A DNA stretch of 45,754 nucleotides from an uncultured Anaerolineales bacterium (lineage in GTDB: Bacteria; Chloroflexota; Anaerolineae; Epilineales; Epilineaceae). Position 1 is the stretch's first letter. Every line of letters starts with the position of its first letter. Of the stretch, positions 1,514 to 25,293 are shown piece after piece. The notes below the pieces were generated by a model that was not told the origin of the DNA, did no database searches, and saw only the letters and a program-made list of their open reading frames with translations. Position numbers and translations under genes: made by a program. The stretch lies in NCBI GenBank assembly GCA_964415605.1, contig CAYQBA010000011.1, forward strand, positions 1 through 45,754. The letters run 5' to 3'.

Positions 1514-2250
1514 TCGGCCCCGACGGGGCCGGCAAGACGACCATCGGCCGGCAGCTCGAGCACGCGCTGCCGATGCCGGCGCGCTACCTCTACATGGGGG
1601 TCAACCTCGAGGCCAGCGGCCTGATGCTGCCGACGACGCGCCTGATGCTGATGCTCAAGCGCGCCCGCGGCGGCCGGCCGGACATGGTGCTCTCCACGGC
1701 GCACGGCGAACGGCGGCCGCAGCCGCGCCACCCCGTCAAGCGCCTGGCCGGACGCGTCAAGTCGGCGGTGCGGGTGACCAACTGGCTGGCCGAGGAGTGG
1801 TTCCGACAGATCGTCGCGTGGGCGTGGCAGCGGCGCGGCTACCTCGTGGTGTTCGACCGGCACTTCTTCGCCGACTACCACGCCCATGACGTGGCGGGCA
1901 ACCACCCGCCGTCGCTGGCCCGCCGGCTGCACGGCGCGGTGCTCCGGCGCTACTACCCCCGGCCGTCGCTGGTGGTGTGCCTCGACGCGCCGGCCGAGGT
2001 GCTGTTCGCACGCAAGGGCGAGGGCACGCTGGCCTGGCTCGAGGCCCGGCGCGCCGAATACCTGGCCCTGCACTCGGCCGTCGACGCGTTCGTGGTGGTG
2101 GACGCCAGCCAGCCGCCCGACGCGGTGCTGCGCGACGTGGTCGCCGCCATCACGGCCCACGTGGGTGACCCCATCGCCGCGGCGTCCACGGCGGGAGGCG
2201 GCGCGGGCGAGCCCGCGCCGGCGAGCCGGAGCGAGGCATGCGCCGGCTGA
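1495..2250 (+). CDS. Small P-loop NTPase, thymidylate/nucleoside-kinase-like
   Basis: The ATG at 1495 gives 'MACVALIGPDGAGKTT' (Walker A). 'LVVFDRHF' is a Walker B-like strand. The C-terminal half of the 25294..26613 product is a clear paralogue. The gene overlaps both neighbours (1495/1513 and 2238/2250). Confidence 0.65.
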   Translation: MACVALIGPDGAGKTTIGRQLEHALPMPARYLYMGVNLEASGLMLPTTRLMLMLKRARGGRPDMVLSTAHGERRPQPRHPVKRLAGRVKSAVRVTNWLAEEWFRQIVAWAWQRRGYLVVFDRHFFADYHAHDVAGNHPPSLARRLHGAVLRRYYPRPSLVVCLDAPAEVLFARKGEGTLAWLEARRAEYLALHSAVDAFVVVDASQPPDAVLRDVVAAITAHVGDPIAAASTAGGGAGEPAPASRSEACAG

Positions 2251-3266: not shown

Positions 3267-3283
3267 AGAGGAGCCTCTCCATC

Positions 3284-4228
3284 GTGCGAATCCTGATCAT
3301 CAGCCCCGTCGACCCGGACGCCATCGCGCGGCTGCGCGAGCGGCACGACGTGGTATGTGCCTTCAATGCCGACGCCGCGACGCTGCGCGAGCGGATCGTC
3401 GACCGCGAAGCCGTGATCCTGCGCAGCGGCGTCAAGCTGGACGCGGCGGCGATGGGGAGCGCGCCGGACCTTCGGCTGGTCGTCCGCGCCGGGTCCGGCA
3501 CCGACAACATCGACCTCGACCACCTCGCGGCGCGCGGCATCACGCTCGTGCGGGTGCCCGAGCCCGGCGCCCAGGCGGTCGCCGAGCTGACGTTCGCCTT
3601 GATGCTCGCGCTGGCGCGCGGGGTGCGCGTGGCCGACGCCCAGCTCCGGCAGGGCCACTGGGCGAAGTACGAGATCGAGGGCCGGTTGATCAGCGGCAAG
3701 GTTCTTGGCGTCGTCGGGGCCGGCAACATCGGCCGGCGGGTGGGACAGATTGGGGCGGCGCTCGGCATGCAGCCCCTGGGGTGCGTCGAACACCCGACGC
3801 CCGAGGCCGTGGCGGCGCTCGAACGGGCGGGGATGACGCTGGCGCCCTTCGACCGGGTGGTGGCCGAGGCCGATTTCTTGACGCTTCACGTACCTTTAAC
3901 GCCGTCTACGCGTTATATAGTCGGTTCAGACGTGCTGGCCCGGGTGAAGCCGGGCGCGTTCCTTGTCAACATGGCCCGGGGGGGCGTGGTCGACGAAGCC
4001 GCGCTGCACGCCGCGCTCGTGCGCGGCGATCGGCTGCGCGGCGCGGCGCTCGACGTGCACGAGCAGGAGGGCGAGGGCAAGCGGTCGCCGTTGGCGGACC
4101 TGCCCAACGTGATCCTGACGCCGCACATCGGCGCCAGCACTGTCGACACCCAGCGCCAGATCGGCGAGCGGGTCGTGGCAATCGTCGAGCAGCACGCCGG
4201 GGCGATGTCGGTGGCCGTGCCGGCATGA
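3284..4228 (+). CDS. D-isomer-specific 2-hydroxyacid dehydrogenase, D-3-phosphoglycerate-dehydrogenase (SerA)-like
   Basis: A GTG start at 3284 lies 10 nt after AAGAGGAG. The NAD-binding motif 'GVVGAGNIGRRVG' is present, together with 'VRAGSGTDNIDL', 'LVNMARGGVVDE' and 'LTPHIGAST' (the catalytic His region). The ORF-track entry 1886..4228 is a composite; only its last 314 codons are this gene. Confidence 0.85.
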   Translation: MRILIISPVDPDAIARLRERHDVVCAFNADAATLRERIVDREAVILRSGVKLDAAAMGSAPDLRLVVRAGSGTDNIDLDHLAARGITLVRVPEPGAQAVAELTFALMLALARGVRVADAQLRQGHWAKYEIEGRLISGKVLGVVGAGNIGRRVGQIGAALGMQPLGCVEHPTPEAVAALERAGMTLAPFDRVVAEADFLTLHVPLTPSTRYIVGSDVLARVKPGAFLVNMARGGVVDEAALHAALVRGDRLRGAALDVHEQEGEGKRSPLADLPNVILTPHIGASTVDTQRQIGERVVAIVEQHAGAMSVAVPA

Positions 4229-4229
4229 G

Positions 4230-4250
4230 GGCGTTGCGGTGCGCAACGCC
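4230..4250 (+). terminator. Small GC hairpin just after the dehydrogenase stop (possible weak terminator or attenuator)
   Basis: ggcgttgcg (4230-4238) pairs with cgcaacgcc (4242-4250) around a 3-nt loop. No U-tract follows. Confidence 0.25.
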
Positions 4251-4294
4251 GTCCCGCGGGTGGGTTCCGCAGCAGACGCGGATGGAGAGAGAAC

Positions 4295-7186
4295 ATGATG
4301 CGATCGCTTGATGCCCGGCGCCACCGGCGCGGGGGCCTGTCGTTCTTGGGTGCGGTGCTCGGCTTGGGGCTGGTGCTCGCGGCGCAGCTCTATTGGATTT
4401 CCCCGACCCGGGCGTCGACGCCGATCTCGGCGGGCTACCTCGGCGCCAACTTCCCGGCGGCCACGGCGGGCAACGGCGACGCCACCGCCGAGAAGCCCGA
4501 AAGCAAGCTGTGGTACAACGACGGCCTCTGGTGGGCGGTGATGTACCACCAGCCGGCGAGCGAGTTCCGGATCTTCAAGCTGGATTGGGCCACGCAGGAC
4601 TGGGTGGCGACGGCCACCGCCGTCGACACGCGCATCAACACCCGGGCGGACGCCCTGTGGGACGGCACGAAGCTCTACATCGTCTCGCACGTCTTTCAGC
4701 AAAACGGTGGTCTGACGGCACCCGCCGGCGAGCGCGGCCAGCTCTACCGCTACAGCTACGACTCGGGCGCCAAGACCTACGCGCTGGACAGCGGCTTCCC
4801 GGTCGAGGTCAACGACGCCAAGTCCGAGACGCTGGTGCTGGCCAAGGACTCGACGGGCAAGCTGTGGGTGACGTACACGATGAGCGACACGCTCGGTATC
4901 CGAGTGGTCGTCAACCGGTCGGTCGGCGGCGACGATGCCACGTGGGGCACGCCCTATGACATCGGCACGACCAAGTCCAGCGGCTTGATCGACGACGACA
5001 TCTCGTCGATCGTCGCGTTCGGCGGCGACAAGGTCGGCGTCGTGTGGAGCCGGCAGGCACCGGGCGAACGCCGGTTCTACATTGCCGTTCACAACGACTC
5101 GGACCCCGAGACGACGTGGACCGAGGCGCTGATCTACAGCGTCTCGTCCGACGACCACCTCCAGCTTCACAACCTGGTTTCCGACAGCGCCGGGAGCATC
5201 TTCGCGGTCGTCAAGACGTCGTCGTCGGCCAACCTGATCAAGCTGCTGAAGTGCAACGCCGGGACGAGCTGCGCCAACGCCACGGACTGGACCAACGCCA
5301 CGATATGGACCAACGCCGAGGGGAGCCCGACGCGCCCGAACATGCTCATCGACACCGAGAACCGTACGATCTACGTGTTCGCGTGCGTGCTCGACGGCAC
5401 CAACCGCGGCGTCTACTACAAGACATCGAGCCTGGACACGATCGCGTTCCCGTCGGGGCTCGGCACACCGTTCATCGCCGACGCCGCCTATTCCCAGATC
5501 AACGACCCGACGACGACCAAGCAAAACGTCAACGGCACCACCAACCTCGTGGTGCTGGCCAGCGATACGTCGGCGCACAAGTACTTCCACAATGTGATCG
5601 ACCTGACCGGCGGGGGGCCGACGGCGGCACCGACGGCGACCACCGCGCCGACCAGCACGCCGACGGCGACCGACACCCCGACCACCCCCGCGACCGCCGT
5701 TCCGACGGCGACCGCGACCCATACGGCGACCGCGACGAACGGCCCGACCGCGACGCGGACCAGCACCGCGACGACCGGCCCGACCGCGCCGGCGACGACC
5801 ACGCCGACGCCCGCATCGGTCATCACGTTGCACCCCATCCACGACGCCCAGGTCAAGAGCACGTCGCCGACGAGCAACTACGGCAGCCTGAACACGCTCC
5901 GCATGCGCTCGACCGACCCGGCGTACAACAGCTTCCTGAAGTTCAACGTGACGGGCATCGGCTCCACCGTCCAATCCGCCGTCCTGCGCCTGTACGTCAC
6001 GGATGCCAGCAACTCCGGCGGGTCGATCTACGTCGTCTCCAACGACTACCTCAACACCACCACGCCGTGGGTGGAGAGCGGCATCAAGTACAACAACGCT
6101 CCGGCGATCGGCGGCACGGTGCTTGATACCAAGGGTACGGTCGGCACCAACACTTGGGTGGAGTTCAACGTGACGGCCGCGGTCACCGGCAACGGCATCA
6201 TCAGCTTCGGGCTGGTCAACGGGACCACCGACAGCGTGCTGTTCAACTCCAAGGAGGCGACGACGAACAAGCCCGAGCTGGTGATCGCCATCGGCTCCGG
6301 CACGCTGGTCCCCACGGCCACGGCGACGCACACGGCCACGGCGTTGCCGACCAGCACGCCCACCGCGACGGCCGTCCCCACGAACACCCCCGTGCCGACC
6401 AGCACGTCGACGCACACGGCCACGGCGACACCGGCCAACACCTCCACGCCCACCGACACACCGACCGCCGGTCCTTCGCCGACGCCGACAAACACGCCGA
6501 CGCCGACCGACACGTCAACGCCGACGAACACCCCGGCAGCGACCCATACGCCGACGCCGACGAACACCCCGGCGGCGACCCATACGCCGACACCGACGAA
6601 CACCCCGGGCTCGACGACCGCGACGCCGGCGGCGCCAACGACGTTCGGGGCGAGCGCCGACGCCCGTGTCAGCAGCGCGGCGCCCAGCACGAACGCCGGC
6701 GGCAGCACGTATCTGCGCCTGCGGGCCGCGTCGGGTGACAACTACCACACCTACCTCAAGTTCAACGTCACCGGGCTCAGCGGCACCGTGACCAGCGCCA
6801 AGGTACGGCTGTTCGTCTACGACGGCGGGCCGAGCGGAGGCTCGATCTACCCGGTCGCCGACACCGCCTGGACCGAAAACGGCATCAACTGGAACAACAA
6901 GCCGGCCTTCAGCGGCGGCGCCCTGAGCACCGTCGGCAACGTACCCAACAACACGTGGGCCGAGTACGACGTGACCGGCGGCGTCTCCGGCAACGGCATG
7001 CACAGCTTCGGGATCGCCAACACCGACTCCAACAGCATCTACATGCGCTCCCGGGAAGCCGCCGACCACAAGCCGGAGTTGGTCATCCAGACCACCGGCG
7101 GCTGGCTGTGGGCCATCAACGCGCCACCGCCCGCCGTGCAGCCCATCCCGATGCCGCGCGACCGTCAGCTCGGCCGACTGTGGTGA
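4295..7186 (+). CDS. Secreted multidomain protein: unassigned beta-propeller-like head + PT linkers + 2 DNRLRE-type modules
   Basis: GGAGAG RBS and ATG 4295. Signal peptide '[22 protein letters not shown]'. The head of about 430 aa shows repeated strand-like motifs ('[13 protein letters not shown]','LYIVSH','LYRYSYD','KLWVTYT','VGVVWSR','FYIAVHND','IFAVVKTS','IYVFACV','VYYKTS'). Two modules of about 150 aa lie at approximately 5818-6290 and 6641-7093, with 'HDAQVKS.SP.SNYG...LR.RS....Y.S.LKF.V.G......A.LRL.V........V.....W.E....NNAP...G.....W.E.DV..AV.GNG..SF.L......V...S.E....PELV'. Confidence 0.85.
5611..5817 (+). repeat. Pro/Thr/Ala-rich low-complexity linker (coding)
   Basis: '[70 protein letters not shown]'. 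Confidence 0.7.
6301..6640 (+). repeat. Pro/Thr-rich linker (coding) containing a direct 36-bp duplication
   Basis: '...[34 protein letters not shown]...'. The unit acgaacaccccggc.gcgacccatacgccgac.ccg occurs twice in tandem around 6520-6600. Confidence 0.7.
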
Positions 7187-7248
7187 GCGTGCGCCTCACC
7201 CGGTGCCGCCCCGACGTCACCGCGATGACGCCGATGGCGTGAGAACTG

Positions 7249-7289
7249 CCCCGGCAGCGGTGCGCCCGAAGGGTGCGCCGCTGCCGGGG
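7249..7289 (+). terminator. Strong intrinsic-terminator-like hairpin between the two tandem paralogues
   Basis: ccccggcagcggtgcgccc (7249-7267), loop gaa, gggtgcgccgctgccgggg (7271-7289). This is a 19-bp stem with two G.U wobbles, followed by the T-containing tail cctgTTaTTggcTTcg. Confidence 0.6.
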
Positions 7290-7326
7290 CCTGTTATTGG
7301 CTTCGCAAGAGATTGAAGGTGACCCC

Positions 7327-10300
7327 ATGCCCTCGGACCATCGCACTTCCCGCTCCGCCGATCGCCGCTCGCTGATCTGCGCGGCGCTTTCCGTGGCCCT
7401 TGCCGTGGCCGCCGCGCTCTCGGCCGGGCCGCCGACGCCCGTGACGGCCTCCACGCCCATCGACGTCGGCTACCGCGACTTCACCTACCCGAGCAACCTG
7501 GCGACGAACGGCGACGCGACCGCCGAGAAGCCCGAGAGCAAGCTGTGGTACAACGACGGGCTCTGGTGGGCGGTGATGTGGAAGACCGCGGCGAGCAGCT
7601 ACCGGATCTATCGGTTCGACGCCGCCACCCAGGACTGGATCGACACCGGCACCAACGTCGACAACCGGGTGGCGTCGCGGGGGGACGTGCTCTGGGAGAA
7701 CAACAAGCTTTACGTGGCGTCGCAGATGGTCGACCTCAACGGTGGGAGCATCGCCTCGGCCGGGCAGCGCGCGCAGCTCTATCGCTACAGCTACGACGCG
7801 GGCACGAAGACCTACGCGCTGGACTCGGGCTTTCCGGTCGAGATCAACGACGCCCGCTCCGAGACCATCGTCCTGGCCCGGGACTCGGCCGGCAAGCTGT
7901 GGATCACCTATACACAGGGCGGGAAGGTCAGGGTCAACCGCTCGCTGAACGGGGACGACGCCTCGTGGGGCACACCGTTTGACCTCGGGACCGCGCACGC
8001 CTCGAACATCAACTCCGACGACGTGTCGTCGATCGTGGCCTACGACGGCAACAAGGTCGGCATCCTCTGGAGCAACCAGTCGGTGGGCTCGGACTTCTTC
8101 TACGCCGTGCACAACGATGGCGACGCCGACACCACGTGGACCGAGGCCACCATCTACACGCCGTCCACCGACGACCACATCAACATCAAGACGCTGCGAG
8201 CGGACAATGCCGGGAACGTGTTCGCGATGTGCAAGACGTCGGCGTCCGCGGCCCTCATCATCCTCCTGAAGTGCGCCGCCGGCACCAACTGCGCATCCCA
8301 GTCCAACTGGTCGGCCTACACGGTGTACACCGGCAACGACGGGAGCCCGACCCGGCCGCAAATGCTTATCGACACCGACAACCGCGACATCTACGTGTTT
8401 GCCAGCATCCAGGTCAACGGCAAGCGCGGCATCCACTACAAGGTGTCGGACCTGGACAACATCGCGTTCCCGTCGGGGAACGGCACCGCGTTCATCCGCC
8501 ACAGCACGAACAACAGCATCAACGACCCGACCACGACCAAGCAAAACGTCAACGGCGCCACCGACATCGTCATCCTGGCCAGCGATACCGGCGCCAACGC
8601 CTACTTCCACAACACCCTTAACATCGGCCCGCCGCCGACGGCGACGCACACGCCGACGTTCGGCCCGTCCCCGACGCCGACGAACACGTTCACGCCGTCG
8701 GTCACGCCCACGCCGTCTGACACCGCGACGGCGACGGCGACCCGGACGCCGACCCCGACGCGGACGCCGACCTCGACGCCGGGCCCGTCCGCGACGCCAG
8801 GGCCGTCGCCGACGCCGACCATCACGCCGACGCCTGCGCCGACGGCGAGCTTCACGGCGGTCCACGACGCGTACGTCAAGAGCTCCTCGCCCACCAGCAA
8901 CTACGGGCTGGACACGTCGCTCCGGCTGCGCAGCGGCGATCCGCTCTACACCAGCCGGCTCAAGTTCGAGGTCACGGGGGTCACGAGCACGATCACCGGC
9001 GCCAAGCTCCGGCTGTTCGTCACCGATGCCGGCCCCGACGGCGGCGCGGTTTACAGCGTCTCCAACGACTACCTGAACACCGGTACGCCGTGGGTCGAGA
9101 GCGGCATCCACTTCAACAACGCCCCGGCGGTCACCGGGTCGCCCCTGAGCACGGCGGGCAGCGTCGCGCAGAACACCTGGATCGAGCTTGACGTCAGCGC
9201 GGCGGTGACGGGGAACGGCACGTTCAGCTTCGCGCTCGTCAGCAATTCGACCAACAGCGTGCTCTACAGCTCGCGCAACGCCGCGACCAACCACCCGGAG
9301 CTCGTGCTGACCCTGGCCGACGTGACGCCGAGCGTGACGCCCACGCCATCGAACACCCCGACGCCATCGAACACCCCGACGCCGTCGTCGACGCCAACCG
9401 AAACCCTGACGCCGAGCGTGACACCCACGCCGTCCGACACGCCGACGCCGAGCGTGACGCCGACGGCGTCGAACACGCCGACGCCGTCGGACACGCCACC
9501 GCCGACCGACACGCCCACCGCAACGCAGACGCCAAGCGTGACGCCCACGCCGTCCGACACGCCGATCCCGTCGGATACGCCGACGGCGAGCGCGACGCCC
9601 ACGCAGGCGCCGATCGTCACGTTCGGCGCCGCGCACGACGCGCAGGTCAAGAGCTCGTCGCCCAACACCAACTACGGCACCGACGCCGCTTTCCGGCTGC
9701 GCAGCGGATCGCCGCTGTACGCCAGCTACCTCAAGTTCGACGTCACGGGGTTGAGCGGTTCGGTGATCAGCGCCAAGATCCGTTTGTTCGTGACCGACGC
9801 CAGCAATCAGGGCGGCGCGATCCGCGTCGTCTCCAACGACTACCTCAACACCACGACGCCGTGGGTGGAGACCGGCCTCACGTTCAACAACGCCCCGACG
9901 ATCTCCGGCACCCCGCTGAGCTCGGTCGGGGCCGTGAGCCAGAACACGTGGGTGGAGTTCGACGTGAGCGCGGCGGTCACCGGCAACGGCACGTACAGCT
10001 TCGGGCTGGACAGCACGTCGACGGACAGCACGATCTACAGCTCGCGCAACGCGACCTCCAACCAGCCGCAGCTCGTGGTCACGGTGGGCGACGTCACCCC
10101 GAGCGCGACGCCGACGCCGTCGGACACCCCGACCCCGTCGAGCACACCCACCGACACCTTGACGCCGAGCGTGACGCCGACACCGTCGGATACCCCGACG
10201 CCGTCCGTCACCCCCACGCCGTCCGACACCCCGCCGCCGAGCGCTACGCCGACCGCGTCGGACACCCCGACGCCGTCGAGCACGCCCTCCGCCACCGCGA

Positions 10301-10893
10301 CCGCCACGAACACCCAACCGCCGACCGCCACGCTGCCGGCGACGAGCACCCCGGCGGCGTCGGTCTTCGCGCCGAGCGACGACGCGCGCGTGGTCAGCGA
10401 CAGCGGTGGCTCGAACTACGGGTCGGCCACCTACCTGCGGCTGCGGCTGGCGGCGTCGCAGGAGTATCAGAGCTTCCTCAAGTTCACGGTCTCCGGGCTG
10501 TCGGGGACGGTCGTCAGCGCCAAGGTGCGCCTGTTCGCCTATGACGGCGGGCCCAGCGGCGGGTCGATCTACCGCGTGGCCGACAACGGCTGGGCCGAGG
10601 GCACCATCACCTGGAACAACAAGCCGGCATTCGACGGCGGCGCGCTGGCGACGGTCGGCAACGCGCCCGACAACACGTGGGTCGAGTACAATGTCACGTC
10701 CGCCGTGACGGGCAACGGCACCTACAGCTTCGGGCTCGCCACCGGGGACAGCAACAGCCTGTACTTCCGGTCCAGGGAGAGCGCGTCCAGCCCGCCCAAC
10801 CGGCCGGAGCTCGTCGTCGAAACGACGACCGGCTATGCGCTGCGTTGGAGCCCGCTCCTACGGCGGCTCGACCATCATCCACCATTGAGGTAA
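7327..10893 (+). CDS. Secreted multidomain protein, paralogue of 4295..7186: the same head + PT linkers + 3 DNRLRE-type modules
   Basis: The start is moved from 7273 to ATG 7327, because the upstream part overlaps the terminator hairpin and GAAGGTGA lies just upstream of 7327. Signal peptide '[22 protein letters not shown]'. The head is collinear with the paralogue ('[23 protein letters not shown]' is identical). DNRLRE modules lie at approximately 8848-9315, 9613-10090 and 10360-10825. Confidence 0.85.
   Translation: [1188 protein letters not shown]
9316..9612 (+). repeat. Coding linker built from degenerate 18-bp 'TPTPS[DNV]' units
   Basis: '[95 protein letters not shown]'. It is collinear with the second linker at 10091-10359. 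Confidence 0.7.
10091..10359 (+). repeat. Second copy of the 'TPTPS[DNV]' linker (coding)
   Basis: '[81 protein letters not shown]'. Confidence 0.7.
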
Positions 10894-10897
10894 CGTC

Positions 10898-11806
10898 ATG
10901 ACCTACATCACCCAGCCGCGCCCTTCGGCCGCGGACAAGCGCGCACGCCTGCGCGCCGGCCTCGCCGGCGCCGCGCCGATTGTCGCCATCGGTGCCCACG
11001 ACGCCATGAGCGCCAGCCTCGTCGAGGGCGCGGGCTTCGACGCGGTGTGGGTCAGCGGCTTCGGCGTGTCGACGATGGGCCACGCCCTCCCCGACCTCAA
11101 CCTGATCACGATGACCGAAGCCCTGGACGCGGCGGTCCGGATCGACGCCGCGACCCGCCTGCCGGTGATCGCCGACTGCGACAACGGGTACGGCGGGCTC
11201 ATCAACGTCGTCCGCACCACCGTGGCCTACGAGCGGGCCGGGATCGCGGCGATCTGCGTCGAGGACAACCTGTTCCCGAAGCGCAACAGCCTGTACCTCG
11301 GCCAGACCCTGCGCGAGCTCATCCCGGTCGACGAGCAGGTCCGCCGCATCCGGGCCGCCAAGGCCGCCCAGACCACCGCCGACTTCGTGTTCATCGCCCG
11401 CGTCGAGGCGCTCATCGCGGGGCACGGCGTGGCCGCGGCCTGCGAGCGCGCCGACGCGTACGCCGACGCCGGCGCCGACGCCATCCTCATCCATTCCAAG
11501 GACAAGACCCTCGCCGAGATCAAGGGCTTCCTCGGCCAGTGGTCCGGCCGCGGGCGCGTCCCCCTCGTCGCCGTGCCGACGCTGTTCCCGGACTTCACGG
11601 CCGAGGCGCTGCACGCCAAGGGGTTCCAGGTGATCATCTGGGCCAACCAGCTCATGCGGGCGTCGGTGAAGGCCATGGAAGACACGCTGGGCGTGCTGGC
11701 GGCCGAGCGTAGGGCCGCCGCGGTCGACCCCCACATCGCACCGGTCAACCACGTCTTCGATCTCGTCGACACGGCGGCGGGCATTGCCCTCGAGGAGCGG
11801 GACTGA
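10898..11806 (+). CDS. pepM: Phosphoenolpyruvate mutase (PEP phosphomutase), isocitrate lyase/PEP mutase superfamily
   Basis: The match to PEP mutase is full-length. Motifs: 'GAHDAMSASLVEGAGFDAVWVSG', 'DCDNGYG' (Asp pair), 'EDNLFPKRNS' (the EDKxFPKxNS signature, not the KRCGH of methylisocitrate lyase), 'ARVEALIAG', 'AGADAILIHSK', 'VIIWANQLMRASV'. GAGGT RBS. The start lies 4 nt after the stop of the preceding giant gene. Confidence 0.8.
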   Translation: MTYITQPRPSAADKRARLRAGLAGAAPIVAIGAHDAMSASLVEGAGFDAVWVSGFGVSTMGHALPDLNLITMTEALDAAVRIDAATRLPVIADCDNGYGGLINVVRTTVAYERAGIAAICVEDNLFPKRNSLYLGQTLRELIPVDEQVRRIRAAKAAQTTADFVFIARVEALIAGHGVAAACERADAYADAGADAILIHSKDKTLAEIKGFLGQWSGRGRVPLVAVPTLFPDFTAEALHAKGFQVIIWANQLMRASVKAMEDTLGVLAAERRAAAVDPHIAPVNHVFDLVDTAAGIALEERD

Positions 11807-11925
11807 CCTACCAGCACGGCCACGGCGTATCCGCGGCGGGCGGCCCGACGTCTTGATACCGGACGGGCGCCCGCCGCGCTTTGTTCCAGACCATTTCGGA
11901 TCCCTTTTCCTCAGGAGCTGTTTGC

Positions 11926-12597
11926 GTGGACCAGACGATTCTCGACAACGTCGCGCGCCCGGAGCTGACGCCGGCCATGATCCTCGTCAGCCTGTCGCTG
12001 GCGTTCGCCCTCGCGTTCCTGTGGGCCACCGTCTACCGCCGCACCCACACCGGCGTCGCGTACACGCGGGGCTTCTATTCGACGCTGATCATCATCGCCC
12101 CGATCGTGGCCATGATCATGATGACCATCCAGAGCAACGTCGCGCTGTCGCTCGGCCTGGTCGGCGCGCTCTCGATCATCCGCTTCCGGACGGTCATCAA
12201 GGACACCAAGGACATGACGTTCCTGTTCCAGTCGGTGGCCATCGGTCTGTGCGCGGGCGCCGGGGCGTGGATCATCGCGCTCGTCGGCACGGGCCTTGTC
12301 GCGGCCATCGTGATCGGGCTGCATGCCATCGGTTACGGCGCGCTCGGGTCGGCGGACTACGTCCTGGTGTTCCGATCGCGCGAGGCCGACCCGTGGTCCA
12401 AGCTGTCGCAGGAGGCGCGCGATCTCGTGGCCTGGAAGCAGCTCCGGGGCGCCACCGACATCGGCGACGACGTCGAGTACACCTTCAACATCCGGCTGGC
12501 GCCCAAGACGGCGCCCGAGCACGTCGTCGGCGCGATCCGCGGCGACGTGGCCCGCGAGGTGACCCTGATCACGCCGGAGAACCACCTTGAGCTCTGA
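11926..12597 (+). CDS. DUF4956-family integral membrane protein
   Basis: GTG 11926 lies 8 nt after AGGAG; the ORF-track start at 11881 is a TTG with no RBS. Four or five hydrophobic helices are visible. The conserved loop 'LSIIRFRTVIKDTKDMTF' is typical of DUF4956, a family usually found beside bacterial VTC-domain genes. Confidence 0.75.
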   Translation: MDQTILDNVARPELTPAMILVSLSLAFALAFLWATVYRRTHTGVAYTRGFYSTLIIIAPIVAMIMMTIQSNVALSLGLVGALSIIRFRTVIKDTKDMTFLFQSVAIGLCAGAGAWIIALVGTGLVAAIVIGLHAIGYGALGSADYVLVFRSREADPWSKLSQEARDLVAWKQLRGATDIGDDVEYTFNIRLAPKTAPEHVVGAIRGDVAREVTLITPENHLEL

Positions 12598-12598
12598 C

Positions 12599-13384
12599 GT
12601 GGCCGGACCCGAGGTCGCCACGCGCCGCGCGCGCGACCTCGGGGTCATGCTGGACCGGTTGGAGGTCAAGTACCGGTTGGAGCGGACGCGCCGGACGGCC
12701 CTCGAGCGCGACGTGCGGGCGTTCATGCAGCTCGACGCCCACAGCCGCCGCGACGGCGGCTACGTGGTGCGCAGCCTTTACCTCGACACCCCGGACTATC
12801 TGGCCTACCACGAGAAGATGGCCGGCGCCGCCTTGCGCCACAAGCTGCGGGTGCGGGTGTACGGTGCCGACCCGGGGCGCGAGTCCCCCTTTGTCCGGCT
12901 CGAGATCAAGTCGCGCGTGTTCGACTTCATCCATAAGACCACCGCGACGGTGGCCTGGGCGGACTATCCCGACCTCATGCGGGCCATCGAGCGCCGGTCG
13001 CTGCCGCCCGCGACGCTGATGGCGGACCCGGGCGTGCGGGCCTTCTTCCGGCTGCAGCGCCAGCTCAACATGGAGCCCAAGGTCATCGTGCAGTACCGCC
13101 GCGCCGCCTACGAGCGCCCGGAGGCCCGCCGGGTGCGCGTCAGCTTCGACGACGAGGTGTTCGCGAGCCGGCACCTCGATCTGTGCGGCCCCCTGGTCGG
13201 CGGGCAGCGCCTGCTGCCCTACGGCTGCGCGATCGTCGAGCTCAAGGCCGACGGCGTGATGACGCGCATCTTCCACGGCCTGATCCACAAGTACGATCTC
13301 CGGCACGAGGCGATCAGCAAGTACTGCATCGCCGTGCGCGCCATGGCCCGGCTCTCGGCCCACAGTCGCGCCGACGGCTCCTGA
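12599..13384 (+). CDS. VTC-domain / triphosphate-tunnel (CYTH-like) polyphosphate-polymerase-domain protein
   Basis: Tunnel-strand 'E.K' motifs are present: 'LEVKYRL', 'RLEIKSR', 'VELKAD'. So are the basic strands 'LRHKLRVRVY' and 'VRSLYLDTPD'. The start is uncertain: TTG 12587, GTG 12599 or ATG 12647, all in frame. Confidence 0.7.
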   Translation: MAGPEVATRRARDLGVMLDRLEVKYRLERTRRTALERDVRAFMQLDAHSRRDGGYVVRSLYLDTPDYLAYHEKMAGAALRHKLRVRVYGADPGRESPFVRLEIKSRVFDFIHKTTATVAWADYPDLMRAIERRSLPPATLMADPGVRAFFRLQRQLNMEPKVIVQYRRAAYERPEARRVRVSFDDEVFASRHLDLCGPLVGGQRLLPYGCAIVELKADGVMTRIFHGLIHKYDLRHEAISKYCIAVRAMARLSAHSRADGS

Positions 13385-13435
13385 TCGCCGGGCGGGATCC
13401 ACCGGCGACGATGCGCAGAAAGGTCTGGTCTTGAG

Positions 13436-16400
13436 ATGTCGAACGGCACCCGCCGCCCGATCGGGCTACGCCGCCTGGCCGCGCTCGGCCGGCGCCTTGC
13501 GCGACCGTTTCAGCGGATCTGGCCGCGGCTGCCCGAGGCCCTGTTCGGCATCCTCGCGGTCGGCATCGTCGGCTTTGCCGCCCTCACCCACTCGACCGCC
13601 ATCGCCGAGCGCGCCAGCCGGTTGGTGACCGGCAACCGCTACCTCGCCTTCGCCGACGGCATGTTGAACCCGTTCCGCGGCGCGCACCTCCTCGTCGACT
13701 CCGGCCTGCCGGTCTACGACCTCAAGCTCGCGCCCGAGAGCATCGCGCGGCTCGAGGACGGGGCCGCCCAGGCGCGCCGGGTCGGCGTGATGAGCGAGGA
13801 GATGCGCGCCTGGGTGCCGGGCACGTTCATCGCCGAGGGCCGGCGCTACCGGGTCGACGTCCGGCTGCGCGGCGACCTCCCGCCGCACTGGGAGGGCGCC
13901 AAGAAGTCGTACCGCATCAAGTTCGACAGCCAGAAGCTCGACGACGACGGCACCATCATCGAAGAGGACATCTTCTTCCACGGCCGGCGGCAGATCAACC
14001 TGATCATCCCGATCGACCGCGACTACGCCGTGTCGCCGTTCGTCGCCGACCTGATGACCGACGAGGGGCTCGTGGTGCCGCGCGGCCAGTTCGTCGTCCT
14101 GCGGATCAACGGTCGCCTGCAAGGCCTGTACTACGAGGTCGAGCAGTTCGACAAGCCGCTGATGGCCGCCTACGACCGGCCCGAGACGACGATCTTCGGG
14201 CAGAACGGCCGGGCCCAGCACTTCGAGCAGTACACCGACCTGGGCACCGGCGTGGCCGCCGACGCCCGTTTCGACATGGGGTCGATCCGCGAGACAGTCG
14301 ACCCGGCCTACGACCTCGGCATGCCGCTCATCGCGCTGCTCAACGCCCACGAGCGCCAGCCCTCGCCCGCCACGTTCCGCCGCGCCCGGGCAGCGCTGGA
14401 CTGGGACAAGTACCTGGCGTTTCGCGCCGTCACGACGCTGCTCAACACCAACCACGTCCGGTTCGGGTCCGACAACCTCAAGCTGTACTTCGACGCCAGC
14501 CGCGGTCTCCTGGAGCCGGTGCCGTGGGACGCCCACCTCGTGCGGATGCCGGTGGAGCCCGGGACCATCGACTTCTGGAACGACCACGGTCCGGACGCGC
14601 TGCAGCGCTCGACGCTCGAGGACCCCGCGCTGCGCCTCCAGCGCAACCGGCTCCTGTGGAAGTGGGTCGGCGACGGCGGCGCGTCGCTCATGCGGCGCTA
14701 CGACGCCATCCACGACCGCGTGCGGCTCCTGGCCTGGGCCGACGTGATGGGCACCCTCGGGCAGGGCTACAAGATGGACGTGTTGCGCCGCGACCTCAAG
14801 CACAACGTCGAGCGGGTGCACAAGGTGCTCGGCCTCTCCAGCGCCAACCTCGTCTACCGCCAGCTTGCCCCGGACCTCGGGGCGATCGATGTCTCCACGC
14901 TGAACTTCAGCGGGATGCGCCTCCAGACCATCACGCTGCACGACAGCACCACGGCGCCGGAGGGGAGCCCGATCGCCGTCACCGACAGCCCGACGCTGAC
15001 GCTGCGCTTCGAGGGCCGGTACTTCCTCGTCGAAGACGTCAACGAGGATGGCGCGATCGATCCCGGCGAGCCGGTGGTCGCCCACGCTCAGGCCGCAGCC
15101 GGCAGCGTGACGTTCGCGGTCGACCGCTGGATCCTGCCCGAGGTGGCCTTCAAGGGCGAGATCATCGGCGAGCGTTACTGGGAGTTCATGGACACCCTTC
15201 AGGGCCGGCGGCACTATCTGGTGCGCGGGCACCTCGCGCCCGCCGAGCGCGACCCGCTGGTGACGCCGCTGCCGGCGATCGACGCCGATGCGGTCAACGC
15301 GGTGACCGGCGCGCCGATGGTCGGCGCCGTCGTCGACCCGTCGACGCCGCCGCCCGTCGACGGGACGATCGGCATCACTGCCTACGACGCCTCCGACCCG
15401 TTCGACGTCGAGGCCCGTTTCCTGACCCGCGACGCCTTCGTGGCGCGCCACCCGCAGTTCCGGCCGATGGCCGGTGATCCCGGCGCCGTCACGCTCGGCG
15501 GGACGGTCGTCATCTCGCGCACCGTGATCGTCCCCGAGGGAACCCGCGTCGTCATCCAGCCGGGCGCCGACATCACGCTGGCGCCGGCCACGAGCGTGCT
15601 GATGTACGGCGGCCTCGAGGCCATCGGAACGCCCGCCGAGCGCATCCGGATCCACGGCGACGCGACCGGCCGGCCTTGGGACGTGTTCGCCGTCGTGCGG
15701 CCGCCGCGGCCGGTGGAGGTGCGCCACACCGACATCTCGCACGGGGGGCAGGGGCAGATCAACGGGATGCTGTTCACCGGCGGCTTCGCGGTGCACAACG
15801 GCGACCTGACGCTCGTCGACGCACGCTTCACCGACATGCAGAGCGAGGACGCCATCAACATCAAGAACGGCCACCTGCAGATGGCCGAGAGCCTGGTGGC
15901 CCGGACGGCCAGCGACGGCATCGACGTCGACTTCGGCACCGGCGAGATCCGCGACAGCGTGTTCGAGGACACCACCGGCGACGGCATCGACCTCTCGGGC
16001 AGCACGCTCACCGTGACCGGCACGCGCGTCGCGCGCGCCGGGGACAAGTGCATCAGCGTCGGCGAGGCGTCGGCCCCGACGATCGTCAACAACGTGCTCG
16101 AGGGCTGCGCCATCGGAATCGCGACCAAGGACCTGTCGGACCCGCGCGTGGCGTACAACACGCTGGTCGGCAACCGCTTGGCCTTGCAAGCCAAGCGCAA
16201 GAAGGCGATGTTCGGCGGCGGGGCCGGGACGTTCGTCAACAACGTGTTCGCCGAGAACGGCGTCATGCTGGAGGAGGATTACTTCTCGCGCGGCCAGGTC
16301 GCCGTCCGCCATGCGCTGGCCGATGCCGAGATCGAACGCTGCGAGGCGTGTCGGGTGGTCGACCGGGTGCCCTTCCGCGACGCCGCCAGCGGCGACTGGC

Positions 16401-16540
16401 GTCTCGCGCCCGACGCGCTGCGCGGGCTGGACGTCGGCACCGAGGTCGTCGAGTGGGCCGTCGGCGCCGACGGGGCCGCGACGGGGCCCGGCGTGTACAG
16501 CCTGGCCGGCGCCGTCGGCCGTGCCGACGCGCCGCGCTAG
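13436..16540 (+). CDS. Membrane-anchored CotH-family atypical kinase with a C-terminal right-handed parallel beta-helix domain
   Basis: An N-terminal single TM segment 'LFGILAVGIVGFAALTH' follows a basic stretch. CotH core motifs: 'YRVDVRLRGDLPPHWEGAKKSYRIKF', 'INLIIPIDRDYAVSPFVADLM', 'VVLRINGRLQGLYYEVEQFDK', 'NHVRFGSDNLKLYFD'. The last roughly 350 aa contain repeated 'DGIDVDFG..EIRDS.F', 'GDGIDLSGS' and 'N.L.G' beta-helix rungs. Confidence 0.85.
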   Translation: MSNGTRRPIGLRRLAALGRRLARPFQRIWPRLPEALFGILAVGIVGFAALTHSTAIAERASRLVTGNRYLAFADGMLNPFRGAHLLVDSGLPVYDLKLAPESIARLEDGAAQARRVGVMSEEMRAWVPGTFIAEGRRYRVDVRLRGDLPPHWEGAKKSYRIKFDSQKLDDDGTIIEEDIFFHGRRQINLIIPIDRDYAVSPFVADLMTDEGLVVPRGQFVVLRINGRLQGLYYEVEQFDKPLMAAYDRPETTIFGQNGRAQHFEQYTDLGTGVAADARFDMGSIRETVDPAYDLGMPLIALLNAHERQPSPATFRRARAALDWDKYLAFRAVTTLLNTNHVRFGSDNLKLYFDASRGLLEPVPWDAHLVRMPVEPGTIDFWNDHGPDALQRSTLEDPALRLQRNRLLWKWVGDGGASLMRRYDAIHDRVRLLAWADVMGTLGQGYKMDVLRRDLKHNVERVHKVLGLSSANLVYRQLAPDLGAIDVSTLNFSGMRLQTITLHDSTTAPEGSPIAVTDSPTLTLRFEGRYFLVEDVNEDGAIDPGEPVVAHAQAAAGSVTFAVDRWILPEVAFKGEIIGERYWEFMDTLQGRRHYLVRGHLAPAERDPLVTPLPAIDADAVNAVTGAPMVGAVVDPSTPPPVDGTIGITAYDASDPFDVEARFLTRDAFVARHPQFRPMAGDPGAVTLGGTVVISRTVIVPEGTRVVIQPGADITLAPATSVLMYGGLEAIGTPAERIRIHGDATGRPWDVFAVVRPPRPVEVRHTDISHGGQGQINGMLFTGGFAVHNGDLTLVDARFTDMQSEDAINIKNGHLQMAESLVARTASDGIDVDFGTGEIRDSVFEDTTGDGIDLSGSTLTVTGTRVARAGDKCISVGEASAPTIVNNVLEGCAIGIATKDLSDPRVAYNTLVGNRLALQAKRKKAMFGGGAGTFVNNVFAENGVMLEEDYFSRGQVAVRHALADAEIERCEACRVVDRVPFRDAASGDWRLAPDALRGLDVGTEVVEWAVGADGAATGPGVYSLAGAVGRADAPR

Positions 16541-16587: not shown

Positions 16588-17385
16588 ATGCAAGCGCTCA
16601 TCCTCGCCGGCGGCCTCGGCACGCGGCTGCGGCCGGTGGTCGCGGATCGCCCCAAGTCCATGGCCGCCGTGGACGACCGCCCGTTTCTGGCCTATCAGAT
16701 CGCCGGCCTCCGGCGCTGGGGGGTCGAGCATGTCGTCCTGTGCGTCGGCTACCTCCACGAGCACGTGTCGGCCTATTTCGGCGACGGCACCGCGAGCGGC
16801 CTGCGGATCGACTACTCGGTGGAAGACCGGCCGCTCGGCACGGGCGGCGCCGTCAAGCTCGCCGAGCGGTTTGTCCGCGGGCCGTTCCTGGTGCTCAATG
16901 GCGACACCTACTTCGACGTCGACCTGCGGGCCATGGCGCGGGCGCACCAGGCGCGCGCGGTGCCGGGCGGCGTCAACGGGAACGGCCGGCCGGGCGAGGC
17001 CCACACCGCCGGCCCCCTGGGAACGGTCGCGGTGGTGGAGGTGCCCGACACGCGGGCATTTGGATCGGTGGCGCTGCGGGCGGACGGCCGGATCGAGGCG
17101 TTTCGCGAGAAATCGGCGGATTTGGCACCGGGTTTCATCAACGCGGGTATCTATTGGCTCGAGAAAGACGTTATGAATCACATCCCGTCGGGCCGGGCGG
17201 TGTCGCTGGAGCGCGACGTCTTCCCCGGCCTCGTGGCGGATCGGCGGGGATTGTACGCCTTTCCGGCCGCCGGCTTCTTCGTCGACATCGGCACGCCCGA
17301 CGGCTATGCTGCCTTCATCGCCCATATCCATGCCCAGGGAGCCCATTCGCATGATCATCCGGAGCAAGGCGCCGCTTCGGCTTAG
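16588..17385 (+). CDS. hddC: Sugar-1-phosphate nucleotidyltransferase, D-glycero-D-manno-heptose-1-phosphate guanylyltransferase-like
   Basis: 'MQALILAGGLGTRLRP' (the G-x-G-T-R signature), 'PKSMAAVDDRPFL', 'LGTGGA', 'LVLNGDTYFDVD'. The assignment to heptose rests on the adjacent hddA and gmhA genes. The ORF-track entry 15676..17385 is trimmed to ATG 16588. Confidence 0.65.
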   Translation: MQALILAGGLGTRLRPVVADRPKSMAAVDDRPFLAYQIAGLRRWGVEHVVLCVGYLHEHVSAYFGDGTASGLRIDYSVEDRPLGTGGAVKLAERFVRGPFLVLNGDTYFDVDLRAMARAHQARAVPGGVNGNGRPGEAHTAGPLGTVAVVEVPDTRAFGSVALRADGRIEAFREKSADLAPGFINAGIYWLEKDVMNHIPSGRAVSLERDVFPGLVADRRGLYAFPAAGFFVDIGTPDGYAAFIAHIHAQGAHSHDHPEQGAASA

Positions 17386-18373
17386 CTTTTGCGGCGGCGG
17401 CACGGACGTGCTGCCGTACGCCGCCGAGCAGGGCGGGATCGTGCTCAGCGCCACCATCGACAAGTTCGCCTTCGGGACCCTCCGGACGCGCGCCGATCGC
17501 ACCATCACCGTGCAGTCGCTCGACTACGACATGGTGGCCAAGTACGACCTCGACGACGAGATGCGCTACGACGGCGAGCTCGACCTGGTCAAGGCCACGA
17601 TTCGCACCATGTTCCCGGCCAACGGCCTGGAGCAAGGGCTGGACTTCTTCCTGCACAGCGACGCCCCGCCGGGCTCGGGCCTCGGCTCGTCTTCGACGAT
17701 GGTGGTGGCGCTGATCGGGCTGATCCGGCAATGGCAGCGGCGGCCGCTGACGAGCTACGACATCGCCAAGCTGGCCTACCACATCGAGCGCGAGGAGCTC
17801 GGGATCCGCGGCGGCATGCAGGACCAGTACGCCGCCACGTTCGGCGGTTTCAACTTCATCGAGTTCGGCGCCTCCGCCGTCATCGTCAACCCGCTGCGGA
17901 TCGACCCCGACGTCGTCAACGAGCTGCAGTACCACCTGTTGCTGTGCTACACCGGCCGCACCCGGATGTCGGCCAACATCATCCGGACCCAGGTCGACAA
18001 CTACGTGCGCCAGGAGGCCGACGTGCTGTCGGCCATGGCCGAGCTCAAGCACATCACCATCGAGCTCAAGAACGCGCTGCTCCAGGGGCGGCTCGACGAC
18101 TTCGGAGCGCTGCTCCACGACGCGTGGATCAACAAGCAGCGGCTGGCGAGCCAGATCACGAACCCCGTGATCGACGAGCTGTACGCCACGGCGCGCGCGC
18201 ACGGCGCCCTCGGCGGCAAGATCACCGGCGCGGGCGGCGGCGGCTACCTGCTGCTGTACTGCGCCTTCGACAAGAAGCACATCGTGGCCGCCGAGCTCGA
18301 GAAGCTCGGCGGACAGGTGGTGGAGTTCATGTTCGAGCCCCACGGCCTGCAGACCTGGGAGGTGAGGGCATGA
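17351..18373 (+). CDS. hddA: GHMP-family sugar kinase, D-glycero-D-manno-heptose-7-phosphate kinase-like
   Basis: ATG 17351 follows GGAG. '[19 protein letters not shown]' is the typical HddA N-terminus. GHMP motif II '[17 protein letters not shown]' and the C-terminal '[15 protein letters not shown]' are present. Confidence 0.75.
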
Positions 18374-19056
18374 CGACGTCTGGGTCGACAGGGGGCGTGC
18401 CAGGGACGAACGGGTCCGCGGCGGCGCCGGCCATGGCGGCCGACAGCGACGCCGCGTTCGCGGCGCAGCTGCGGCGGATCTTCGAGGACAGCATGGCCGT
18501 CAAGCGGGCGGTGGTGGACGGGCAGCTGCCGGTGCTGGCCGCCATCGCCCGCCTGTGGGCCGACGCCCTGACGCGGGGCGGCAAGATCCTCCTGTTCGGC
18601 AACGGCGGCAGCGCCGCCGACGCCCAGCACCTGGCGGGCGAGCTCGTCAGCCGCTTCCTCGTCGAGCGGCGCGCACTGGCCGGCATCGCGCTGACCACCG
18701 ACACCTCGATTCTCACCGCCATCGGCAACGACTACGGCTTCGACCGTGTCTTCGCGCGCCAGGTCGAGGCCCTCGGGCGGCCGGGCGACGTCGCGGTGGG
18801 CATCAGCACCAGCGGCCGCTCGCCCAACGTCCTGGCGGGCATCGACGCCGCGCGCGCGCTGGGATTGACCACGGTGGGCTTCACCGGCGCCGGCCGCGAG
18901 GGGCTGGCCGAGCGGGTGGACATCTGCTTCCACGTGCCGTCGCGGCACACCCCGCGCATCCAGGAATGCCATCTCGCGGCCGGCCACGCGATCTGCGAGA
19001 TCGTCGAGCGCGTCTTCAGCGACGCCGGCCACGGGGACGCCGACGGTCGGGCGTAG
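18370..19056 (+). CDS. gmhA: D-sedoheptulose-7-phosphate isomerase (SIS domain)
   Basis: The ATGA overlap joins it to hddA. Motifs: '[21 protein letters not shown]', '[18 protein letters not shown]', '[11 protein letters not shown]', 'IQECHL..GH'. Confidence 0.8.
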
Positions 19057-19100
19057 GCTCCACCCGGTAACGGGCGACCGCCGCCGCGCGTCTTTGAGGT

Positions 19101-25286: not shown

Positions 25287-25293
25287 GGCGGCC

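Follow-up and report, generated by a model that had tools for sequence, protein, structure and literature searches.

A PEP-mutase-like enzyme paired with a phosphoglycerate-dehydrogenase-like reductase in an exopolysaccharide locus of an uncultured Anaerolineales bacterium

The stretch of DNA considered here, contig CAYQBA010000011.1 of the uncultured Anaerolineales assembly GCA_964415605.1, is 45,754 nt long with a G+C content of 70%; we refer to it in its entirety as the window, and all coordinates are those of the whole stretch unless given with the name of another locus. Domain searches of its open reading frames (ORFs) show it to be a polysaccharide or surface-glycan locus. The gene of interest, at 10898-11806, encodes a protein resembling phosphoenolpyruvate (PEP) mutase (PepM/Ppm, EC 5.4.2.9), and the principal finding is that this mutase is no orphan but one half of a strongly conserved mutase-reductase pair, the other half being a gene at 3284-4228 that resembles D-3-phosphoglycerate dehydrogenase (PGDH). 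The genes and features that bear most directly on this pair are as follows.

1495-2250, plus strand: P-loop kinase-like protein, dTMP-kinase-like, with a GPDGAGKT motif and weak matches to Thymidylate_kin and TIGR00041
2238-3266, plus strand: polysaccharide deacetylase of family CE4 (PF01522, 58.7 bits), PgaB-like in NCBIfam
3284-4228, plus strand: PGDH-like 2-hydroxyacid dehydrogenase of 314 aa (2-Hacid_dh_C 175 bits, 2-Hacid_dh 76 bits)
4295-7186, plus strand: CBM96 (DNRLRE) protein A, secreted, 963 aa, with Pro/Thr-rich linkers and two CBM96 modules (209.6 bits)
7248-7290, plus strand: terminator-like hairpin between CBM96 genes A and B, formed by a perfect GC-rich inverted repeat of 20 bp around a loop of 3 nt and followed by a T-rich tail
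7327-10893, plus strand: CBM96 protein B, secreted, about 1188 aa from the ATG at 7327, with three CBM96 modules (302.9 bits)
10898-11806, plus strand: PEP-mutase-like protein of the DxDN/EDN/NS clade, 302 aa (PF13714, 178.6 bits)
11881-12597, plus strand: DUF4956 protein (Pfam match)
12587-13384, plus strand: VTC polyphosphate-polymerase-like protein (Pfam match)
13436-16540, plus strand: CotH kinase with beta-helix (Pfam match)
16588-19056, plus strand: HddC-like nucleotidyltransferase, HddA-like GHMP kinase and GmhA isomerase (NCBIfam HddC 159, HddA 302 and GmhA 180-199 bits)
22332-23552, plus strand: ATP-grasp protein resembling carboxylate-amine ligases, about 406 aa, its start placed by alignment to P0121 (87% identity)

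The pepM-like ORF has a G+C content at third codon positions of 0.96, and its ATG at 10898 stands 4 nt past the TAA (10891-10893) of CBM96 gene B, with a GAGG at 10887. The frame of gene B is open from a GTG at 7273, which would give 1206 aa; the true start is probably the ATG at 7327, because the hairpin overlaps the GTG. An earlier examination of this DNA from its letters and ORFs, which we call the original prediction, had described a pepM starting 4 nt after the stop of a DNRLRE gene of about 1190 aa, a terminator upstream of that giant gene, and DUF4956, VTC and CotH genes following pepM. Reading of the junction (with three modules of CBM96, formerly DNRLRE, in the gene before it), the hairpin with its T-rich tail and the Pfam matches bear out this layout.

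Profile searches place the product of 10898-11806 closest to PEP mutase. Its match to the Pfam domain PEP_mutase (PF13714; E 2e-52, gathering cutoff 31.5 bits) is not specific, because the domain spans a whole branch of the superfamily. Among the NCBIfam models the top family is PEP mutase (TIGR02320, 256.2 bits), and the scores for phosphonopyruvate hydrolase (PPH; TIGR02321, the second family, 196 bits, cutoff 374.4), methylisocitrate lyase (prpB, 163 bits, cutoff 354) and carboxy-PEP mutase (TIGR02319, 94.6 bits, cutoff 420) each lie below the cutoff of the model concerned. The lyase loop K(R)CGH with its cysteine is absent, the window protein reading FPKRNS. Ranking and loop both agree with the original assignment to the true mutase type rather than to methylisocitrate lyase. 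Sequence matches in the PDB were led by the PEP mutase of 5UNC (211 bits), ahead of PPH (184 bits) and the Mytilus PepM (174 bits), and an AlphaFold2 model of the protein (pLDDT 82.8) matches 5UNC with template modelling (TM) scores of 0.86/0.90. Compared with the PEP mutases of Mytilus edulis (1M1B) and Streptomyces platensis (5UNC) together, the fold is the same (TM 0.84-0.90) at 34-41% identity, and the set of Mg2+ ligands, the phosphoryl-binding residues, the K-x-N-S element of the gating loop and the C-terminal helices are shared.

In the active-site alignment with 1M1B and 5UNC (Mytilus numbering) the residues D58, D85, D87, E114, K120, N122, S123, R159 and H190 are all kept, and catalytic roles have been assigned in PEP mutase to all of these apart from K120 (PMC7916636). 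The sole deviations are T88N and K116N (N96 and N124 in the window protein), neither at a position with an assigned catalytic role; in contrast to PEP mutase, every member of the clade to which the protein belongs, which we call the EDN clade, carries both substitutions. The original prediction, that the ORF keeps every motif of a true PEP mutase, therefore stands in part: the strings DCDNGYG, EDNLFPKRNS, ARVE and IHSK are all present and the catalytic residues are intact, but the second string has EDN for EDK, the first has DxDNG, and the TIGR02320 score is below the cutoff of that model. The protein is most likely a functional enzyme of the PEP-mutase type and not a methylisocitrate lyase, a PPH or a carboxy-PEP mutase.

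PPH (PalA, 2DUA, TIGR02321) deserves separate consideration, as it shares the fold of the window protein, 38-39% identity and the oxyanion-hole triplet SGF (against SGL). Together with the second rank of PPH among the families, the name 'phosphonopyruvate hydrolase' that one database gives to homologue P0008 and the phytase encoded in the window, these likenesses favour a catabolic enzyme, PPH or another, by which phosphonolactate would pass through phosphonopyruvate to PEP, or to pyruvate and phosphate, in the scavenging of phosphorus. PPH is set apart from PepM by N122T (PMC7916636), however, and the window protein has the N of PepM at this position, reads EDN rather than EDK and lies outside the PPH subclade. 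The surroundings offer no transporter, regulator or PalB-type aminotransferase, nor any other catabolic context, and the gene is set instead among polysaccharide biosynthesis genes with an ATP-consuming ligase, all of which makes a catabolic role very improbable.

The EDN clade is tightly defined and widely distributed. Its 120 members closest to the window protein (70-94% identity) all combine EDN-x-FPK-x-NS with DCDNG[FY]G, and when a library was reduced by clustering at 50% identity a single full-length representative of the clade was left (409 bits), the next match dropping to 275 bits and 52% identity. When each GTDB species was represented by one genome, relatives turned up in 362 genomes, mainly of Chloroflexota, Actinomycetota (Geodermatophilaceae, Nocardioidaceae, Acidimicrobiia and others) and KSB1. 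The nearest, a metagenome-assembled genome labelled UCB3, is colinear in layout, with an identity of 95% at the protein and about 85% at the DNA level. The clade has cultured carriers in Blastococcus (B. colisei, with mutase-like protein WP_142027783 and reductase WP_170182633), Geodermatophilus (G. telluris DSM 45421) and Nocardioides (N. caldifontis YIM 730233). Public annotation of the pepM-like gene and its partners is generic; the names given to the four genes in B. colisei are thymidylate kinase, D-3-phosphoglycerate dehydrogenase, phosphoenolpyruvate mutase (or ICL/PEP mutase family protein) and ATP-grasp carboligase. In a neighbour-joining tree with 200 bootstraps the EDN clade is monophyletic (bootstrap 100) and stands outside the PPH subclade (2DUA with P0351, bootstrap 96), which is itself nested among EDK sequences. 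On this tree, whose backbone bootstrap is near 0, the clade is thus not placed with PPH, and the phylogeny is in keeping with the original prediction of a mutase.

The reductase lies hidden in a long stop-free frame (1886-4228, plus strand), in which a GTG start at 3284 follows an AGAGGAG ribosome-binding site. An ORF at 3355-4311 was considered as the gene between the deacetylase and CBM96 protein A and was rejected, being in the wrong frame and without family matches. The product of 3284-4228 scores 256 bits against the PGDH model TIGR01327, and 195 and 186 bits against the PDB PGDHs 1WWK and 1YGY. In alignment, its catalytic Arg/Glu/His and its cationic positions (RS, RAG and W-x-K) fall on those of true PGDHs, and conservation of R47, S48, R68, K128, R232, E262 and H281 among 79 orthologues is 97% or higher. 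The keto-acid substrate of PGDH, 3-phosphohydroxypyruvate, differs from phosphonopyruvate solely in having a bridging oxygen. Where the original prediction saw no recognisable coupling enzyme for the mutase, a reductase included, there is thus a complete D-2-hydroxyacid dehydrogenase on the same strand, 6.7 kb upstream.

The strength of the pairing is apparent from the neighbourhoods of 85 related loci (up to 10 kb on each side), to which all counts of loci below refer. An orthologue of the reductase was found upstream of the pepM-like gene in 82 of them, 81 by tblastn and one (L052) by Pfam; in the tblastn set mean identity is 57%, 80 of the genes share the strand of the pepM-like gene, 76 are no more than 300 bp away from it, and the median gap is 78 bp. 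The pairing spans three phyla. The puzzle raised by the original prediction, a mutase with nothing to pull its reaction, accordingly dissolves, the reductase being the most conserved neighbour of all, and a predicted phosphonopyruvate-consuming enzyme accompanies the mutase both in the window and in these 82 loci. Two of the three loci that lack the reductase have no upstream DNA. The third, L032, is full-length and without a PGDH-like gene, and carries an Ldh_2 dehydrogenase (12706-13773 of that locus, minus strand) 1.9 kb from its pepM-like gene, with L-sulfolactate dehydrogenase as best NCBIfam match (243 bits; the next family scores 135). The substrate of L-sulfolactate dehydrogenase, sulfopyruvate, corresponds to phosphonopyruvate with a sulfonate in place of the phosphonate, and it has also been seen as a ligand in a PepM structure (PMC7916636). 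The Ldh_2 gene appears to be a non-orthologous replacement of the reductase, and such replacement by like chemistry is good evidence for the nature of the reductase step. As reduction by a 2-hydroxyacid dehydrogenase is a recognised way of pulling the PepM equilibrium (PMC8942020; PMC12871164), we consider the dehydrogenase at 3284-4228 a candidate phosphonopyruvate reductase, and hence the candidate coupling enzyme.

These counts also bear on the view, implicit in the original prediction, that the mutase is an orphan from which the DUF4956, VTC and CotH proteins draw off phosphonopyruvate by some new chemistry. The order pepM-DUF4956-VTC-CotH recurs, in addition to the window, in L005, L006 and the KSB1 loci L020, L023, L024 and L052; in the KSB1 loci the trio, at 50-62% identity, occurs in genomes of very different G+C content (45-52% against 70%), and the pepM-like gene is translationally close to the gene before it and downstream of the terminator-like hairpin. 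These are only 6 of the 85 related loci, however, so that the adjacency whose conservation had been proposed as a check is confined to a small minority; about 79 have no such trio after pepM, and the reductase is present in the window and in all four KSB1 loci. The trio is moreover known as an accessory module beside Gram-positive Pel operons that lack pepM (Whitfield et al., bioRxiv 10.1101/768473). The slot directly after pepM is filled by a beta-propeller phytase in a further seven loci (L003, L004, L007, L008, L011, L012 and L014), and phosphorus-related accessory genes seem to have been swapped into it. The neighbourhood statistics largely refute the orphan mutase, to which we would give hardly any weight, and we read DUF4956/VTC/CotH as an independent exopolysaccharide accessory, possibly concerned with phosphorus, rather than as a coupling system.

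Two further partners complete the usual cassette, in which a P-loop kinase, the reductase, PepM(EDN) and an ATP-grasp ligase follow one another within polysaccharide-synthesis loci; because this neighbourhood recurs across the 85 loci, the four-gene order is ancestral. In the lineage of the window, which comprises the window, L005 and L006 with colinear layouts, two CBM96 genes lie between reductase and mutase, and DUF4956/VTC/CotH and the heptose genes lie between mutase and ligase, so that the cassette has been pulled apart by insertions. The ATP-grasp gene occurs in 76 loci, in 61 of which it follows the pepM-like gene at a distance of no more than 300 bp, and its homologues are named 'carboxylate--amine ligase' or 'D-aspartate ligase'. 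Its AlphaFold2 model (pLDDT 88.3) matches generic folds (biotin carboxylase, PurK and Ddl, TM about 0.6), and since these matches are common to the superfamily the fold does not indicate the substrate. The P-loop kinase-like gene was found in 59-64 loci, ahead of the reductase and, as a rule, some 1 kb before the pepM-like gene, and the window copy at 1495-2250 is 52% identical to WP_170182634 of B. colisei. A CE4 deacetylase is present in 22-23 loci, usually after the ATP-grasp gene, and about 1.3 kb downstream of pepM in 19.

A second P-loop family of 380-422 aa, HprK/FomB-like, lies just upstream of the cassette in 62 loci (for example L082 2-1267 and L032 11570-12706, minus strand) and was not found in the window. 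It might phosphorylate the phosphonate, and its weak similarity to HPr kinase and to FomB, the fosfomycin-monophosphate kinase, is a hint only, at 19-26 bits. Query-free clustering of ORFs from the 85 loci gave back the cassette families and, as further recurring neighbours, an initiating sugar transferase, GT2 and GT4 glycosyltransferases, flippase, Wzz, Wzy, epimerase, deacetylase and sulfotransferases; no thiamine diphosphate (ThDP), aminotransferase or HMGL family reached a count of 8 loci. In the window itself, domain searches of the substantial ORFs found no ThDP, HMGL/homocitrate-synthase-like or aminotransferase domain, just as the original prediction had reported, and tblastn with genuine phosphonopyruvate decarboxylase (Ppd) and 2-aminoethylphosphonate transaminase (AEPT) queries gave no match. 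Sulfotransfer_3 genes were noted in 13-17 related loci (among them L065 4105-5277, L069 17038-18051 and L001 1-1009), and the recurrence of sulfotransferases suggests that the polysaccharide may bear sulfate beside the predicted phosphonate group.

Loss of the EDK lysine is not confined to the EDN clade. Among the 130 representative clusters nearest to the window protein, 44 lack it (with N in 32), while D58, D85, E114 and R159 are invariant and K120 is present in 129. Positions 88 and 116 co-vary, with 65 T/K, 37 non-T/non-K and 21 and 7 mixed (odds ratio 16, p 5e-11, uncorrected for phylogeny). Several of the non-EDK proteins are fused to MobA-like nucleotidyltransferase domains, and split ThDP decarboxylase genes (TPP_enzyme_N, TPP_enzyme_C) come directly after the genes for P0249, P0243 and P0244, with an Aminotran_5 gene alongside in one case, which is the canonical Ppm-Ppd-AEPT arrangement. 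Because non-EDK relatives adjoin phosphonopyruvate decarboxylase genes, their genomic context suggests by analogy that the EDK lysine is dispensable. This has consequences for inventories of phosphonate biosynthesis. That of Rice et al. in 2019 required a perfect EDKx5NS and dropped 26,231 PF13714 sequences as presumed non-Ppm (PMC6697681), and the same perfect signature was demanded by Li & Horsman in 2022 (PMC8942020) and by a 2025 survey of actinomycetes (PMC12723261). All three would exclude the EDN clade, since the 120 closest homologues all read EDN; the clade is non-canonical, uncharacterised and apparently overlooked by inventories, and by analogy with its Ppd-linked relatives the EDKx5NS filter seems to lose genuine pepM genes in phosphonate genome mining.

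Non-EDK homologues that even have Cys in place of Asn122 (EDNxFPKRCS) lie beside split ThDP phosphonopyruvate decarboxylase genes (L086 752-3538, L087 1039-3993 and L088 1838-5139), with an Aminotran_5 gene as well at L088. The canonical Ppm-Ppd-AEPT cluster of L088 also encodes, at 6715-8901, a 728-aa fusion of a methyltransferase to a thymidylate-kinase-like domain, the second dTMP-kinase-like domain to be found associated with phosphonate genes.

The remaining features of the window, among them the glycosyltransferase, Wzz and Wzy genes that mark it as an exopolysaccharide locus, are listed here.

101-1513, plus strand: APH-type kinase
19098-20225, plus strand: beta-helix protein
20318-21529, plus strand: GT1 glycosyltransferase
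23628-25286, plus strand: Wzz-like protein
about 26002-26538, plus strand: second dTMP-kinase-like P-loop paralogue, contained in the ORF 25132-26613 and flanked by the Wzz-like and GT4 genes
26589-27959, plus strand: GT4 glycosyltransferase
ending at 29494, plus strand: Wzy-like polymerase
29541-31256, minus strand: malic enzyme (711 bits)
31217-34468, minus strand: CBM96 protein with NHL repeats
34621-37569, plus strand: CBM96 protein with an alginate-lyase domain
39059-41638, minus strand: beta-propeller phytase protein, 860 aa (phytase domain 316 bits, residues 134-455)
distal part of the window, minus strand: alginate-lyase-like protein

HddC, HddA and GmhA constitute a set for GDP-D-glycero-alpha-D-manno-heptose that is found in only 2-4 of the 85 loci; no GmhB phosphatase is recognisable in the window, and the ORFs for the kinase and the nucleotidyltransferase have about 80 nt in common. 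The nucleotidyltransferase was considered as a PntC-like activator of the phosphonate and rejected, being HddC-like, placed beside HddA and GmhA and present in only 3 of the 85 loci. The malic enzyme was likewise rejected as a phosphonopyruvate reductase or decarboxylase, since it is on the opposite strand, scores at a housekeeping level and has a homologue in no related locus. The second P-loop paralogue is divergent, with 32% identity to the copy at 1495-2250. Four large secreted CBM96 proteins with two or three modules each and long Pro/Thr-rich linkers are encoded within 45 kb, of which A and B have in common a conserved N-terminal domain of about 430 aa without a Pfam match. The phytase protein has some 400 further residues without a family match, and its gene adjoins alginate-lyase-like genes.

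Family and fold, the retained catalytic residues, the obligate neighbouring reductase and the polysaccharide setting are results of computation. Taking the cassette and its setting together, we infer substrates, a direction of reaction, a chemistry of ligation and an acceptor as follows. The PepM-like enzyme (DxDN...EDNxFPKxNS) would convert PEP to 3-phosphonopyruvate, and the NAD(P)H-dependent reduction of this product to phosphonolactate by the PGDH-like enzyme would pull the unfavourable equilibrium. That the EDN mutase and its reductase lead from PEP through phosphonopyruvate to phosphonolactate is, in our estimation, probable; the attachment of the product to a glycan is proposed with less confidence. 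The ATP-grasp ligase would probably form an acyl phosphate on the carboxylate of phosphonolactate and join it to an amine, plausibly that of an amino sugar which the CE4 deacetylase encoded alongside would lay bare, while phosphorylation of the phosphonate may fall to the dTMP-kinase-like P-loop protein. The acceptor would be the exopolysaccharide made by the products of the surrounding glycosyltransferase, Wzx/Wzy and Wzz genes. The scheme as a whole, in which EDN mutase, reductase, ATP-grasp ligase and P-loop kinases install a phosphonolactate-derived group on exopolysaccharides, is a tentative one that we rate as a serious possibility. Because the locus is one for a surface glycan or exopolysaccharide, a phosphonate decoration of the glycan is the most plausible product, and the gene content of the window agrees with the original prediction in this respect.

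A number of points weigh against this pathway. The TIGR02320 score of the protein is short of the curated cutoff of 319.55, and the signature EDKx5NS is replaced by EDNx5NS (EDNLFPKRNS) with DxDTG changed to DxDNG, substitutions that could alter the chemistry because they are adjacent to metal-binding residues. The deep branching order of the PepM/PPH tree has near-zero backbone support, and transfer of function from the non-EDK relatives, which belong to other subclades, is for that reason a matter of analogy and not of orthology. In the window the reductase gene is probably not co-transcribed with the mutase, as it lies upstream of the terminator-like hairpin. The substrates of ligase and kinase are guesses: no close characterised relative was found for the ATP-grasp protein, and the profile matches of the P-loop protein are weak (24-37 bits). 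Finally, neither a PntC-type cytidylyltransferase nor LicD recurs in the 85 loci.

Some of these points would suit a PepM-superfamily enzyme whose active site the DxDN/EDN substitutions had retuned to another activity, be it hydrolase, decarboxylase or lyase, on a different 3-substituted 2-keto acid such as oxaloacetate, phosphohydroxypyruvate or a sulfopyruvate-like compound. The PGDH-like partner would then make or consume the keto acid, for example by converting 3-phosphoglycerate to phosphohydroxypyruvate, and the decoration would be of a glycerate, lactate or phosphoglycerate type and not a phosphonate. Beyond the missing EDK and the sub-cutoff score, such an activity would fit the long isolated branch of the clade, with its fall from 409 to 275 bits to the nearest neighbours, the true PGDHs that are the closest characterised relatives of the reductase, and a superfamily known for functional divergence on one scaffold. 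It fits less well with the lack of K(R)CGH, with a PepM-type K-x-N-S that is strict in 120 of 120 close homologues, or with the retention of every phosphoryl-contacting residue (R159, H190, N122 and S123), and other non-EDK relatives lie in unmistakable phosphonate operons. A dedicated enzyme for pyruvate or lactate would be redundant, and the dehydrogenase that stands in for the reductase in L032 belongs to the sulfolactate type, whose substrate is also a three-carbon acid with a C-linked anionic group. On balance we consider such an alternative activity unlikely and retain the PEP mutase coupled to a phosphonopyruvate reductase.

Of the described systems, the early pathway of valinophos and dihydroxypropylphosphonic acid (DHPPA), in which the PepM VlpA and the 2-hydroxyacid dehydrogenase VlpB lead to phosphonolactate (Li & Horsman 2022, PMC8942020), comes near to the proposed route. 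Both have pepM adjoining a 2-Hacid_dh_C dehydrogenase as a thermodynamic pull and an ATP-grasp ligase in the cluster, and the window locus shows the combination by which the VlpB branch is recognised, pepM and 2-Hacid_dh_C without Ppd (PMC8942020). The likeness to VlpB is one of enzyme class. From phosphonolactate the valinophos route continues through the vlpCDE core to 2,3-dihydroxypropylphosphonate; the recurrent neighbours in the loci described here comprise a P-loop kinase, an ATP-grasp protein, the HprK/FomB-like P-loop protein and polysaccharide genes. The loci described here differ in that their context is exopolysaccharide synthesis and not a small-molecule cluster, in that their PepM is EDN, so that the inventory that defined VlpB-type neighbourhoods would filter it out, and in their hosts, which are Chloroflexota, Geodermatophilaceae, Nocardioidaceae and KSB1.

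The Pnt phosphonoglycan loci (Ppm-Ppd-AEPT with PntC; Rice et al. 2019, PMC6697681) likewise place pepM among cell-surface glycan genes, with a phosphonate decoration of polysaccharide as the predicted product. In contrast to these, no Ppd, AEPT or PntC/LicD-type system was found in the window or the 85 loci, the only nucleotidyltransferase of the window belongs to the heptose set, and activation would proceed through ATP-grasp and P-loop kinases. Unlike PEP mutases, in the 85 loci the EDN proteins are never fused to nucleotidyltransferase or decarboxylase domains, and their partner is the PGDH-like reductase and not Ppd. The CotH/VTC/DUF4956 module of Pel loci (bioRxiv 10.1101/768473) likewise has these three families side by side in association with an exopolysaccharide locus; here it belongs to a non-Pel locus of Wzx/Wzy type, directly follows a pepM-like gene and has a CotH protein with a C-terminal beta-helix. 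Our literature searches found no paper on the EDN clade, its cassette or phosphonolactate-bearing glycans, nor any described phosphonate cluster with this context, as the original prediction had also stated.

Phosphonates are sought as antibiotics and herbicides and make up a sizeable pool of environmental organic phosphorus, and both discovery pipelines and estimates of their abundance rest on the recognition of pepM by EDKx5NS. If the EDN clade is active this filter yields false negatives, as the Ppd-linked non-EDK relatives also suggest, and the capacity for phosphonate biosynthesis in nature would be systematically underestimated. The cultured carriers make the clade a clean test case both for the tolerance of the PepM active site and for nucleotide-free attachment of phosphonates to glycans. 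Should the proposed pathway be correct, it would represent a new class of phosphonoglycan made without Ppd, with phosphorylation and ligation taking the place of nucleotidyl transfer in its activation, in a clade that no fewer than 362 species-level genomes of Chloroflexota, Actinomycetota and KSB1 from soil and sediment contain; given an active mutase, the cassette would mark an uncharted phosphonate-bearing polysaccharide in common soil phyla.

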